Virus record (IMG/VR): IMGVR_UViG_2648501338_000002
Coordinates: 1-7,879 of that record
DNA: 7,879 nt
Strand: one strand, 5' to 3'
Origin: a virus
Taxonomy: Duplodnaviria > Heunggongvirae > Uroviricota > Caudoviricetes
A program made the position numbers. This document shows positions 1-3,000 of the stretch, piece by piece. Each line of letters begins with the position of its first letter. Position 1 is the first letter of the stretch.

Positions 1-3000
1 CGGAAGCCTGAATGACACACGGGGACTACAGCCCAAGAAATGAAAAAAGGCCACGCAGTTGCGCAGCCTGATAAACCCTGGTTAAAATCCACACGATAAC
101 AACACAACAATATCAGTATCTCATGCTATTGCCCGAACCCATTCGGGCATTTTTTACCCATAAAAAATGCCCCTCCGGAGAGGGGCATGTTTGCATGCAC
201 ATTCTTTTTCTTGCATGGTGCCGGGTGCCTCCCGGTGAATTCAGTATCAGCACCTGAATCCGCGATTATCACATATACCTGGTTGCTGATTGCCCCTCCG
301 CACAGGGGGATTCACCATGCAGAAGTATTTTTAATAAACAGCAAACAAAAAAATCAAGCATTATGCAGGCTGTTTCTTTTTATCACCGGCCACAGCAATA
401 CCACAATGCCGCAGACCAGCACCCCATCCGCCAGCACCGACATGATTCTGCTGGTGAAATCCACCATCACCACCAGAAACAGCAGGAGTGCAGCCACAGC
501 CAGGCGCAGTTTTACCGTCACAGGTGATTCTCCAGACGAAGACCCAGAACACCGGCAATCTCTTCCAGCACCTTGCGCTCTTCCGGCTCAATTTCGCCGT
601 CTGCCTCCGCAATGGCCACCGCCACATCCAGCACATCTTCCGCTTCACGCGTATCGTGTTTCACATCTTCAATTTCACGCAATGCCGCTCGACGACCAGT
701 TTTAAAGTTCGTATCCAGCTGACCGATAATGGTTGCGCTAATCGCATTAATTTCTGACGTAAACGCGGACAACGCAGGCTGGTTACGCAAGACCTGCTCG
801 ATCTTCGCTTTCTCTGAAGCCTCACATTCACCATCTGCATAGGCCACCAGATAGGCAGCATTAATAACCGCCTGTGCCAGATCACGTTTCTCAAACTTTT
901 TAATTTCCACTGCCGCTCGGCGGGCTTTTTTACCAAAAATACAAACATCGTGACGTTCCTTTGGGTGGGTGAGCCAACGCCCGGGAGCGATCTGCCCACA
1001 GAGAAAGTCACACTGACCACTCCGTAAGCTCACCCCCGAAAGGCTCTGTGGTTGATATGCGCCGGGCGTGGCGCAGATACAAAAAAGGCCCGCCGAAGCG
1101 AGCCAAGTAAATAAATATGGCGCGTTGTACTGGATTCGAACCAGTGACCGATTGCTTAGAAGGCAATTGCTCTGTCCGACTGAGCTAACAACGCATGATG
1201 CTGATAATGGACCGCCATCGGGGACTTGAACCCCGCACAGCCAGCTTCGAAGGCTGACGCTCTATCCCGATGAGCTAATGGCGGTATGTGATGGTGGCCC
1301 TTGCTGGATTTGAACCAGCGACCTGGCGATTATGAGTCGCTCGCTCTCACCACTGAGCTAAAGGGCCGGGCGCAGGATAATAACGGTACGTAACTAATTC
1401 TGCAATATCATCCGTTCTGACTGACTACATTCTGAACTTCCCTGACCGTCTGCTCAAAACGCCCGCTCTCCAGCTCAACGCCAATTGCACGACGCCCCAG
1501 CGCCATTGCTGCTTTGACGCTACGGACATAAAAAAGCCAGCCACTGGGGGAGGCTGGCAAACTCGTAGAGCAAAATGCTGTTACGCAAACTTCGTTACAG
1601 GGTTATCCTGCAATACTTAAAATATACAATATTTAGAAAACTAATAGTGCTATATGCGATTTTTAAGATTTTGTTATTAATTACGGTCGCACCTTCCTTT
1701 CTGTGTACTTTCCGTATAGCTCACAGGATTCGGGGTACAAAAAAACCCGCGCATCGGCGGGTTCGACTGCGTGGCAATGTAACCACTCTTATCATGATAT
1801 GCAGATTTTTACGATCGTAAACTATTTTTTCGCTGATAAAATACAGAGGTTCTCCCTCCCGGCAATTCACGCTCAACATACCGATCCATCTCAAGCCTCA
1901 CTCCCAGCATCATCAGCATGCCTTCAACAATCCCCTCCGCTTTGTGAAGGCGTTTACCTATACAGGTGTCAGAGCACCCATGTTTCCGTGCCAACGCCAT
2001 GAACGTCTCCCCCAACACGTAATAATCAACCAGCAAGTCATGCAGATCGCGATTGTTCCGGTAAAGGCGGGCTATGCACCCGCATATCACCATCGCATCA
2101 TCGTCACAGCACTGTGGACGTGATTTTACTTTTTCGGGGATCAGTCCCTTAAATCCGGCAGCAATGGGCGACCATGTAACATCCTCATAGTTATTTGCCG
2201 CCCATGCCCCCCAGCGCTCAAGAACCTGCCGGATATCACGCATCAGTATCTTTACCCCATCCGCGGTGAACCATAAGAACACCGTTGACGATAGCGTGTC
2301 TTTTCCCTTCTTTATCGCCAGTGTATTTTCTGACCGTGTTGCGACTACAGTTCAGTATTCTGGCTACCTCGGTCTGATTTTCATATGCCTCAACGAGCAT
2401 GTCAGGAATGGTTTTTACTGTGAACGTCATGCGGCCTCACTTCTGCTGTTTCGCAGGTCTTTAAGTTTCTGCTGATACTTCGCCTTGATCGCCCTGCATT
2501 CTTCGACAGTCCAGCGATGGCGGTTATGGTTCGATTCGATTTCGTCTACTGCTTCCTGCCCGATGCGGTTAATCAGTTCGACGCGATACGGAACGAGATT
2601 TCCGCTTTTGTGCTGGTTGCACACCACGCATTGCTTGTGAATATTGCGTTCATCAAATCGGAGTTGAGGTGTCGCAGCAGTTGTCCGGTAATGTCCGGCA
2701 TCCCACTGAGCAGACGTGAGCGTTCCGCACGAGATACATGGTAAGTCGCGGTCTCTTTCTCTGATGAAGGCGTTTACGGCTTGTTGGGCTTGTTTAATCC
2801 AGTAACTGCGGGGCTTTAAGGCGAGTTTTCGAATCTTCAGTTTATCTTTCTGTTTCTGCTCCTCTCGTCGTCGTTTCTTCTCTGCTGCTTTTTCCGCTTT
2901 TTCGCGTTCTTTACTTCGTCGTTCGAGTGCTAATTGAGTTCCGTGTTCCGGGCTGCACCACCACTGATTTGAGAATGCCGGGTGAAACCATTCCTTACAG

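Follow-up and report, generated by a model that had tools for sequence, protein, structure and literature searches.

Location and organization of the tRNA cluster

The window, i.e. the whole 7,879-nucleotide stretch of viral DNA analysed here (IMG/VR record IMGVR_UViG_2648501338_000002), contains exactly three tRNA genes, located at 1118-1367 and all on the minus strand (ARAGORN; Rfam concurs). These ARAGORN coordinates are, to the base, those of an earlier note made from the sequence alone, which gave no strand. On the late strand, the order is Ile2(CAU)-Arg(UCG)-Arg(UCU), between Q/pR'/tR' and the first late gene. The note's placement of the triplet, after the late promoter and ahead of the position equivalent to stx, is borne out by the coordinates, the promoter scan and the mapping of phage 933W.

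The window is, in reverse orientation, a 933W-like prophage with the order Q, pR', tR', promoter of the tRNAs, the three tRNAs and a terminator. The prophage reaches well past both window sides in the matching genome; its tail is of the long, lambda-like kind, and an nleA effector locus is present. No stx gene is found in the window. The toxin position is occupied by a TerB-family gene (518-940, minus strand; Pfam TerB, E=3e-16; PGAP) and a DUF3927 gene (390-521, minus strand; Pfam DUF3927, E=9e-13; PGAP), neither of which belongs to the tRNA unit. A role of the tRNA genes as an integration site was also considered and discarded, given their place in the late leader, well away from either end of the prophage.

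The elements described next are all on the minus strand. The late antiterminator gene Q (1809..2243), which defines the slot of the tRNA array, was identified by Pfam (Phage_antitermQ, E=1e-50), and in a 99.9% identical genome its product bears the annotation 'antiterminator Q family protein'. The late promoter pR' (TTTACG-16-TATCAT; 1794..1821), found by the promoter scan, is the pR' annotated in 933W after mapping (3727-3754 of locus L001, offset 1933). The first intrinsic terminator after pR' (tR'; 1743..1764) has an 8-bp stem followed by a T run (terminator scan) and matches a terminator annotated in 933W. A second tR' terminator (GCCAGCC...GGCUGGC UUUUUU; 1530..1558), found by sequence reading, maps to the 933W terminator at 3463-3491 of L001. 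It lies about 258 nt from pR'. As StxS's 3' end was placed 258 nt downstream of pR' by Sy et al. (PMC7547250), this terminator probably marks where a StxS-like short RNA has its 3' end.

The putative promoter of the tRNA operon, pT (TTGCAG-17-TATTAT; 1377..1405), is homologous to the 933W element annotated as 'pT; putative tRNA promoter', from which it differs once, in the spacer. There are 10 nt between the end of its -10 element and ileZ, and its score (8/12) is under the threshold of the promoter scan. In the Stx2 prophage of strain Sakai, a primary transcription start located between tR' and stx2AB by dRNA-seq drives the tRNAs (PMC7547250). The operon is closed by an intrinsic terminator (1079..1104; 7-bp stem with 6 G-C pairs, UUUUUU; terminator scan), whose homologue in 933W is annotated 'terminator upstream of the stx genes'.

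Identity and structure of the three tRNAs

Scores and E-values obtained with Rfam model RF00005 (gathering score, 29 bits) are 72.5 bits and 7.7e-15 for ileZ, 55.9 bits and 2.9e-10 for argN, and 71.7 bits and 1.3e-14 for argO; argN is 16 bits under its neighbours. Each gene has the canonical features of a bacterial tRNA, i.e. a score above the threshold and a cloverleaf with 7/4/5/5-bp stems. The anticodon loops, CUCAUAA (ileZ), CUUCGAA (argN) and CUUCUAA (argO), have 7 nt, U33 and a purine at position 37. The T loops are UUCAAAU, UUCAAGU and UUCGAAU, respectively. G18 G19, T54 T55 C56 and A58 are present in all three tRNAs (sequence reading), and CCA is encoded in 3/3. PGAP annotates tRNA-Ile, tRNA-Arg and tRNA-Arg in the 99.9% identical E. 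coli chromosome, with 0 pseudogenes.

ileZ (1292..1367, minus strand) encodes a tRNA-Ile2 with a CAU anticodon of the lysidine type, reading AUA. It is reported as Met(cat) by ARAGORN; the assignment draws on this hit, Rfam, identity with 933W and PGAP (tRNA-Ile). TilS determinants are C4-G69 and C5-G68 (U4-A69 and A5-U68 in tRNA-Met), and IleRS elements are A73, U12-A23, C29-G41, A37 and A38. All of them are found in ileZ together with the CAU anticodon and an encoded CCA (sequence reading), as expected for tRNA-Ile2 rather than tRNA-Met. One mismatch, A27.C43, was detected (Rfam). The gene is identical to 933W ileZ over 76/76 positions (pairwise alignment).

argO (1118..1194, minus strand) encodes a tRNA-Arg with a UCU anticodon for AGA/AGG (ARAGORN Arg(tct), Rfam, 933W homology). 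It has the ArgRS identity set (A20 in the D loop AGUCGGACA, C35, U36), A37, a purine discriminator (G73) and no non-standard pair. It is identical to 933W argO at 75/77 positions, the stem changes keeping pairing.

argN (1208..1284, minus strand), the middle gene, encodes a tRNA-Arg with a UCG anticodon, matching CGA by Watson-Crick pairing and CGG by wobble (ARAGORN Arg(tcg), Rfam, fold, 933W homology). Its sequence, segment by segment, is CCGCCAU UA GCUC AUCGGGAUA GAGC G UCAGC CUUCGAA GCUGG CUGUG CGGGG UUCAAGU CCCCG AUGGCGG U CCA. The 21/21 pairs include no non-standard one, and the minimum-free-energy fold is the cloverleaf. The loop CUUCGAA, the anticodon UCG and the C1-G72 start, all proposed earlier, were recovered by ARAGORN and sequence reading; no other anticodon was assigned by ARAGORN, and the gene is not scored as a pseudogene (PGAP tRNA-Arg). 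It also has discriminator U73, an encoded CCA and a U15/G48 combination. The identity elements of E. coli ArgRS are A20, C35 and G36 or U36; A20 (D loop AUCGGGAUA), C35 and G36 are present. The discriminator in E. coli tRNA-Arg species is A or G; argN lacks this minor element, as does 933W argN, which also has U73.

argN is identical to 933W argN at 72/77 positions, and the five differences are in loops or keep pairs (C27-G43 -> U-G; G51-U63 -> G-C). Identical copies are present in other E. coli genomes. Polymorphism is much higher in argN than in ileZ or argO, and a substantial share of the copies has A58G, A52.C62 and A6.A67. The UCG anticodon is kept in 64/65 argN copies; it is a fixed, already known feature of argN.

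argN-type genes were found in 1777/5426 complete E. coli genomes (median, 2 copies), and argN-like DNA had no match in the other 3649/5426 at blastn sensitivity. This absence from two thirds of complete genomes agrees with the earlier view that UCG is outside the standard E. coli set. An origin of the middle tRNA from a host core tRNA was rejected because of these 3649 unmatched genomes. The standard E. coli tRNA set contains no counterpart of argN and 0 tRNA genes whose anticodon is the Watson-Crick partner of CGA (PMC4032129 Table 1).

Comparison with known systems

The GenBank annotation of 933W (NC_000924) includes ileZ, argN (note 'CGG?'), argO (note 'AGG?'), pR', qut, two terminators, pT and the downstream terminator. 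The same three genes, in the same order, orientation and slot, are found in 933W, in Sakai Sp5, in Stx2 phage I and in many other Stx phages. The ileZ-argN-argO arrangement named in the earlier note is therefore the one present, with the genes, order and layout annotated in 933W (alignment). The flanks are also alignable, with about 97% identity over 1070-1500. The triplet is thus a long-annotated, already known cluster of Stx-type lambdoid phages, real but ordinary. Within the literature collection searched, nothing relevant was retrieved for ileZ/argN/argO by gene name or for 933W tRNAs and rare codons.

Several differences from 933W were found. The ileZ-argN spacer has a 2-nt deletion in the window, and position 37 of argO is the canonical A instead of the G of 933W. 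Homology ends around window position 1070, and the TerB-family and DUF3927 genes replace stxAB. The tail of 933W is short, whereas that of the window's prophage is long and lambda-like, in a prophage with an nleA effector locus. A location immediately upstream of stxAB, the usual trait in Stx phages, is not found in the window; this trait does not define the cluster.

Host ileX/ileY (Ile2, CAU) and argU (Arg, UCU) have the same anticodons, identity elements (C4-G69 and C5-G68; A20 and C35) and codons (AUA; AGA/AGG) as ileZ and argO, but the phage genes are separate, diverged prophage genes. tRNA genes downstream of Q recur in lambdoid phages and have been read as a rare-codon supply; SfI, Sf6, ST64T, PS3 and phage 21 carry Asn-GUU and/or Thr-UGU genes there (PMC3636060). 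The slot right after Q and the proposed role in supplementing host tRNAs are the same as here, whereas the anticodon sets differ. The tRNA-Lys of T5 (versus PARIS) and the tRNA-Thr(UGU) of T4/Bas32 (versus P2 OLD) are likewise phage-borne and enlarge the host pool during infection. They copy abundant host isoacceptors that are cleaved by nucleases and have evasive stem-loop changes, whereas the tRNAs of the window read the rarest codons.

Codon usage

The host sample comprised 44 core genes (14,286 codons). Its four rarest sense codons are, per 1000, AGA (1.1), AGG (1.4), AUA (3.2) and CGA (3.6); CGG is at 5.2. The anticodons of the triplet cover exactly these four codons plus CGG. The rare codons to which Ile2(CAU) and Arg(UCU) had been matched, AUA, AGA and AGG, are all among the four. 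Frequencies in prophage early genes are, per 1000, AUA 13.3, AGA 14.4, AGG 8.0, CGA 12.1 and CGG 9.1. The codons read by the triplet are 2-13 times enriched in these genes relative to the host (3.4 times for CGA). CGA accounts for 9/23 Arg codons of NinG, encoded in the window. AUA, AGA, AGG and CGA are only mildly enriched in late structural genes. Frequencies do not differ between 55 contigs with canonical argN and 47 without it (CGA, 6.0 versus 6.1; CGG, 11.2 versus 11.2 per 1000), a weak comparison given that the contigs are short, mosaic and related.

The TerB and DUF3927 genes (183 codons together) contain 0 AUA, 1 AGA, 0 AGG, 2 CGA and 0 CGG. Among 120 related viral contigs, the gene directly after the same triplet is NanS-p in 29, TerB in 14 and Stx2 in 7; StxA is encoded downstream in only 8/120. 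The tRNAs are therefore phage backbone equipment, untied to the gene in the stx slot: this gene is nearly devoid of their codons, and the triplet precedes NanS-p, TerB or Stx2. The AT-rich, rare-codon-rich gene of the window is a P63C-domain ORF (3906-4973; 7 AUA, 8 AGA, 4 AGG), which belongs to the 933W backbone and is not an insert, contrary to the earlier suggestion.

The scaffold found in slot 2

argN belongs to a C1-G72 scaffold (CCGCCAY...RUGGCGG-N-CCA) with the same D and T arms, found in slot 2 in all related arrays examined. Among 120 IMG/VR loci, the slot-2 anticodon arm is UCG in 66, has an 11-nt loop in 26, is UUU in 18 (mostly with C33) and UCU in 1, and is shortened or otherwise altered in 9. 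In other Enterobacteriaceae, the loop of 59 scaffold copies is hypervariable and 5 or 6 nt long; about 68/74 of their other positions are invariant across genera, and these copies fall under the Rfam tRNA threshold. Across Enterobacteriaceae, the acceptor, D and T arms are near-invariant, whereas the anticodon arm varies to an extreme degree and often departs from the canonical form. All of 40 scaffold variants have A20. Arg and Lys forms differ by compensatory double changes at 3-4 pairs.

In sister prophages, slots 2-4 after ileZ are Lys(UUU)-Thr(UGU)-Gly(UCC). Other sister arrays have Ile2, a non-canonical tRNA-like gene, Thr and Gly. A fossil scaffold copy is located in the E. coli core genome beside yahM. 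'Ile2-Arg(UCU)' arrays were considered as cases of argN loss leaving a 5' remnant; this was rejected, slot 2 being a full-length scaffold copy with an 11-nt loop. Many variable loops hold Ser- or Leu-like triplets, and bacterial Schlafen tRNases targeting Ser/Leu tRNAs were considered; their published targets are others.

No RNA family covering the non-canonical copies was found in Rfam or by literature search. It is conceivable, if rather doubtful, that argN is a canonical-looking member of an apparently undescribed prophage tRNA-like family, occupying the same slot in many enterobacterial prophages, with a top half (C1-G72 acceptor stem, D arm, T arm, CCA) near-invariant in many genera and a freely swapped or diversified anticodon arm (UCG, UCU and UUU in 7-nt loops, hypervariable 5-6-nt loops, 11-nt loops), slot 2 being programmable, beyond plain codon supply, if the pattern reflects selection.

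Function of the triplet

The favoured reading (probability about 0.7) is that the window carries the intact ileZ-argN-argO operon of a 933W-like lambdoid prophage without stx, supplying rare-codon decoders for the phage backbone. Behind it stand direct observations on the identity, folding, anticodons, position and homology of the genes and on codon usage. The operon lies in the leader of the late transcript and could be made in the lysogen, since its own putative sigma-70 promoter pT is downstream of tR'. After induction, it would also be transcribed by Q-antiterminated read-through from pR'; its own terminator follows argO. Maturation of the precursor to give the three tRNAs would presumably fall to RNase P and 3'-end processing enzymes of the host. 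Judging from the identity elements, host TilS would convert C34 of ileZ to lysidine, giving an AUA reader. argO would read AGA/AGG, and argN would read CGA via Watson-Crick U34-A and CGG via wobble. Without argN, CGA is left to host tRNA-Arg(ICG), whose I-A wobble is inefficient. Assuming charging, modification and an effect on fitness, the triplet would make more decoders available for the codons that are rarest in the host and overused in phage early genes. Points that weigh against this reading are the U73, U15/G48, C1-G72 and lower Rfam score of argN, its polymorphism, the equal CGA/CGG use with and without canonical argN, the mild enrichment in late structural genes, and the scaffold's frequent anticodon arms that cannot decode.

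An unlikely alternative is that argN is not a working Arg decoder. It would be either a decaying passenger or a tRNA-like RNA whose function is in the acceptor/D/T top half (processing signal, decoy, other non-ribosomal role), the UCG arm being interchangeable. The same C1-G72 scaffold does carry very different anticodon arms in slot 2 (120 IMG/VR loci), but UCG is retained in all argN copies but one (64/65), and the Arg and Lys forms are set apart by compensatory double changes. The 59 copies of other Enterobacteriaceae with hypervariable loops and a near-invariant remainder, under the Rfam threshold, argue for this alternative, as do U73 and the many argN variants with A58G and stem mismatches. 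The argN of the window, however, is fully canonical (21/21 pairs, 7-nt loop, U33, A37, A20 with C35 and G36, CCA) and passes ARAGORN, Rfam and PGAP. The alternative is also favoured by the equal CGA/CGG use with and without argN, in contigs that are short, mosaic and related; the rank of CGA as fourth-rarest codon of the host and its 3.4-fold enrichment in early genes speak against it.

It is also improbable that the triplet serves counter-defence or back-up, phage copies replacing or bypassing host tRNAs destroyed by tRNA-cleaving toxins or abortive-infection nucleases, e.g. an anticodon nuclease of the colicin D type specific for Arg, so that phage translation continues once host tRNA-Arg or tRNA-Ile runs short. 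Phage tRNAs do restore infection in the face of PARIS (Lys-UUU), retron Eco7 (Tyr) and P2 OLD (Thr-UGU, others), and the targets reported are Lys-UUU for PARIS, Tyr-GUA for retron Eco7, and Thr-UGU, Gly-UCC, fMet, Val-UAC and Pro-UGG for OLD (PMC11464382, PMC12445682, bioRxiv 10.64898/2026.07.10.737580). However, 0/3 anticodons of the window are among these targets. The general hypothesis, set out in PMC10264068, includes colicin D (Arg), which is there a hypothesis only. The Lys(UUU)-Thr(UGU)-Gly(UCC) of sister arrays match the PARIS target (Lys) and two top OLD targets (Thr-UGU, Gly-UCC), and a UCG tRNA would free CGA/CGG from host tRNA-Arg(ICG/CCG). The exact fit to the four rarest host codons is nevertheless predicted by codon supply and not by nuclease evasion. 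The loops of argN and argO are moreover canonical (7 nt; C32, U33, A37, A38), and no obvious evasive mutation is seen, since they equal the loops of the host tRNA-Arg species except at position 34.

That the tRNAs exist to support expression of an AT-rich gene inserted at the stx position, as first proposed, can be practically dismissed: the toxin gene of true Stx2 phages is rich in these codons, 933W stxA2 using AUA for 15/20 Ile codons and having 6 AGA, but the genes in this position here have next to none of the codons concerned (0 AUA, 0 AGG, 1 AGA and 2 CGA in 183 codons), the triplet occurs with at least three different downstream genes (NanS-p being most often directly after it), and between the tRNAs and the gene that follows there is a terminator.

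Significance

Relative to the earlier note, the corrections are that the genes are on the minus strand, that the prophage has no toxin and that the tRNAs are a property of the backbone. For the window itself this is of little importance, such clusters having long been annotated in Stx-type phages. It is relevant where they serve as markers of Stx phages. Of the arrays of this type found here, the majority do not adjoin stx.

The scaffold often carries anticodon arms unable to decode, so a selected function of slot 2 may not be decoding. Should selection underlie this pattern, slot 2 might act as a decoy for anticodon-specific nucleases or compete for them, or might encode a recoding tRNA charged independently of its anticodon. 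The pattern touches the question of why temperate phages carry tRNA genes and may merit a separate look.

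tRNA genes: detection and structure

Three tRNA genes, all on the minus strand, were found by ARAGORN in the 7879-base window: tRNA-Met/Ile2 (anticodon cat; ileZ) at 1292-1367, tRNA-Arg (tcg; argN) at 1208-1284 and tRNA-Arg (tct; argO) at 1118-1194. They score 72.5, 55.9 and 71.7 bits, respectively, with the Rfam tRNA model (gathering score: 29), with E-values of 1e-10 to 1e-15. In the alignment to this model, none of the base pairs of argN and argO is marked as non-standard. In the matching genome of E. coli C325, PGAP annotates tRNA-Ile, tRNA-Arg and tRNA-Arg, none of the three as a pseudogene. 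The triplet is far beyond chance. The feature is real, and the coordinates given in an earlier note, made from the sequence alone, agree to the base with those of ARAGORN; its anticodons were also returned.

The sequence of argN is CCGCCAU-UA-GCUC-AUCGGGAUA-GAGC-G-UCAGC-CUUCGAA-GCUGG-CUGUG-CGGGG-UUCAAGU-CCCCG-AUGGCGG-U-CCA. The discriminator is U73 and CCA is encoded in the gene. The loop CUUCGAA, the anticodon UCG and the C1-G72 pair read as that note had described them. The cloverleaf is the minimum-free-energy fold, with 21/21 stem pairs, U33, A37, G18 G19 and a canonical T loop. This copy is canonical throughout, and the best reading is a functional tRNA-Arg(UCG). Identical copies are carried by other E. 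coli genomes, O157:H7 among them.

Identity elements were read from the sequence. ileZ has C4-G69 and C5-G68, the pairs by which the lysidine synthetase TilS tells tRNA-Ile2 from tRNA-Met, and also A73, U12-A23, C29-G41, A37 and A38. Both argN and argO have A20, C35 and G36 or U36, the main ArgRS determinants. The discriminator is G73 in argO; U73 of argN departs from the purine of E. coli tRNA-Arg species. Position 73 is a minor element for ArgRS.

Locus organization and comparison with phage 933W

The window is a lambdoid prophage in reverse orientation, about 98% identical to the Stx2 phage 933W and relatives over positions 1070-7784. Annotation of the equivalent stretch of 933W: O, P, ren, ninB, methylase, P63C-domain gene, roi, ninG, ninH, Q, pR' with qut, two terminators, 'pT; putative tRNA promoter', ileZ, argN, argO, terminator, then stxA2B2. 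The cluster, including its unusual UCG anticodon, is annotated as ileZ-argN-argO in the GenBank record of 933W, an arrangement that the earlier note had given for Stx phages; the record carries the notes 'CGG?' on argN and 'AGG?' on argO.

All the following features are on the minus strand. Scans and 933W mapping place Q at 1809-2243, pR' at 1794-1821, a terminator at 1743-1764 and the terminator after argO at 1079-1104. A second terminator (1530-1558) was located by 933W mapping and sequence, and pT (TTGCAG-17-TATTAT, 1377-1405) by 933W mapping. Between tR' and the tRNA promoter there is part of a gene for a site-specific DNA methyltransferase (1408-1521), a pseudogene without N-terminus according to PGAP.

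Compared with 933W, ileZ is identical in pairwise alignment, argN differs at five positions (20a, 27, 47, 57, 63; the stem changes are C-G to U-G and G-U to G-C), argO differs at two (D-loop 16 and 37) and the ileZ-argN spacer is 2 nt shorter. Position 37 of argO is the canonical A in the window and G in 933W (L001, the 933W locus, 3049-3125). A37 is needed for t6A in tRNAs reading ANN codons. It is found in the window and in most IMG/VR copies, so the atypical allele is that of the reference phage.

Homology to 933W stops at about 1070. The stx position is occupied by a TerB-family gene (518-940; Pfam E=3e-16) and a DUF3927 gene (390-521; Pfam E=9e-13). Downstream of them are two back-to-back Rfam small-RNA matches, at 94-155 (+) and 156-349 (-): AgvB (96.5 bits, full length, own terminator), an anti-GcvB sRNA of EHEC prophages, and STnc100 (145.6 bits).

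The closest genome is that of E. coli C325, a human gut isolate (99.9% identity). Its prophage continues downstream with NanS-p, lysis genes and terminase, followed by long-tail genes of the lambda type and an effector locus with nleA. The strain is EPEC-like, and its lambdoid prophage combines effector genes with an early region of the 933W type. In the type III effector locus at its end (19182-23730 of locus L123, beyond the window), nleA is intact with 13 AUA codons and espS is frameshifted.

Expression

The transcription start found by dRNA-seq in a sister Stx2 prophage agrees with pT (PMC7547250). From the position of the tRNA operon, transcription by Q-dependent read-through from pR' is also expected. 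The pR'-to-tR' leader (about 1530-1787, -) shares about 98% identity with its 933W counterpart and has a terminator T-run about 258 nt from the promoter; this is the reported length of the StxS regulatory sRNA (PMC7547250). Given this identity and length, the toxin-less prophage probably still makes an StxS-like RNA.

Function of the cluster

Codon supply is the best explanation of the cluster (confidence about 0.7). It is also how this cluster is classically read, as are tRNAs located downstream of Q across lambdoid phages (PMC3636060). A host sample (50-kb core stretch of the same genome; 44 genes with 14,286 codons) has AGA (1.1 per 1000), AGG (1.4), AUA (3.2) and CGA (3.6) as its four rarest sense codons; CGG is at 5.2. 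AGA, AGG, AUA and CGA + CGG are exactly the codons covered by the three anticodons. Prophage frequencies per 1000 for AUA, AGA, AGG, CGA and CGG are 13.3, 14.4, 8.0, 12.1 and 9.1 in early genes, 9.1, 7.0, 6.1, 4.4 and 10.4 in lysis and terminase genes, and 6.9, 3.4, 4.6, 4.4 and 18.1 in structural genes. Within the window, CGA accounts for 9/23 Arg codons of NinG, and the P63C ORF contains 7 AUA, 8 AGA and 4 AGG. ileZ, argN and argO would act as decoders for the rarest host codons, which the prophage early genes overuse.

CGA is decoded via I-A wobble, which is slow. This slowness, together with the lack of a Watson-Crick partner for CGA in the standard E. coli tRNA gene set (PMC4032129 Table 1), gives a U34 tRNA-Arg an obvious use. 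Among IMG/VR contigs, CGA/CGG use is equal with and without canonical argN; the shortness, mosaicism and relatedness of these contigs make this a weak test. argN is also much more variable than its neighbours (34 distinct sequences among 65 copies), with a recurrent subset carrying A58G, A52.C62 and A6.A67.

Counter-defence is a conceivable role. Infection blocked by PARIS, retron Eco7 or P2 OLD is rescued by phage tRNAs, and sister prophages have, at this array position, Ile2-Lys(UUU)-Thr(UGU)-Gly(UCC), in which the Lys(UUU) anticodon matches the PARIS target and those of Thr(UGU) and Gly(UCC) match the two top P2 OLD targets. However, none of the window anticodons is among the reported nuclease targets, and that they fit the rarest codons exactly is as expected under codon supply. 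The alternative array is found at loci L003, L007, L044, L141, L154 and others; its Thr gene is 82-84% identical to tRNA-Thr of T4-like phages.

Support of AT-rich cargo, the only new interpretive step of the earlier note, is not borne out: the toxin-slot genes (183 codons) have 0 AUA, 1 AGA, 0 AGG, 2 CGA and 0 CGG, whereas stxA2 of 933W uses AUA for 15/20 Ile codons, and the triplet precedes different genes. Rare codons are enriched in early genes and scarce in TerB/DUF3927, and the AT-rich P63C gene is backbone, present in the 933W annotation. A scan of IMG/VR with the last 25 nt of ileZ gave 120 contigs; there, the Ile2-Arg(UCG)-Arg(UCU) triplet stands directly ahead of NanS-p in 29, TerB in 14 and Stx2 in 7. 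It is therefore the late-regulatory backbone that the tRNAs accompany, irrespective of the insert that follows.

The argN scaffold family

The argN scaffold (CCGCCAY...RUGGCGG-U-CCA, D and T arms in common) also underlies the Lys(UUU) gene of the alternative array and one Arg(UCU) gene. Arg and Lys forms differ by compensatory double changes at 3-4 pairs. In the 120 contigs, slot 2 (the position right after ileZ) is occupied by a scaffold member in every array: 66 arms are canonical UCG, 26 have an 11-nt loop on an ACGAC/GUUGU stem, 18 are UUU, 1 is UCU and 9 are shortened or other. U33 is universal in tRNA; the Lys-like genes mostly have C33 instead.

When one genome per species (GTDB) was scanned with the 5' 20-mer, the scaffold turned up in many Enterobacteriaceae genera, with UCG in only 3/53 loci. 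In most of these loci the stem RCAAC/GUUGU is conserved, the variable loop has 4 nt, and the 'anticodon' loop, of 5 or 6 nt, differs between species. After a second IMG/VR scan, short-loop copies number 59, with 26 distinct stem-plus-loop combinations; the hypervariable loops include CAGGAU, UAAAU, UUAAU, CACAGU and CUUAGC. These copies lie outside the window and fall short of the Rfam tRNA threshold. The body that they share with argN comprises the C1-G72 acceptor stem, D arm, T arm and CCA; about 68/74 positions are invariant across genera, although the flanks are saturated with changes. They are always in slot 2 of Ile2-X-Thr(UGU)-Gly(UCC), downstream of Q (loci L124-L213; e.g. L131 1474-1547, L126 7700-7773); in Pseudescherichia vulneris, this array lies 245 nt downstream of the Q gene.

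An 81-nt relative of the scaffold (ACAAC-CAGGAUU-GUUGU arm; 'Ser(gga)' according to ARAGORN; no RNA annotation) is found in the core chromosome of 5169/5426 complete E. coli genomes and in representative genomes of E. albertii, E. ruysiae and E. whittamii. In E. coli str. Sanji (L215 3501-3581), it is flanked by yahL and yahM and overlaps the latter, a small ORF, at its start.

No description of the family was found in a literature search or in Rfam. The remaining interest of the cluster comes mainly from this family. Neutral decay does not produce a constant body combined with a free anticodon arm, and decoding may not in every case be the function for which slot 2 is selected.
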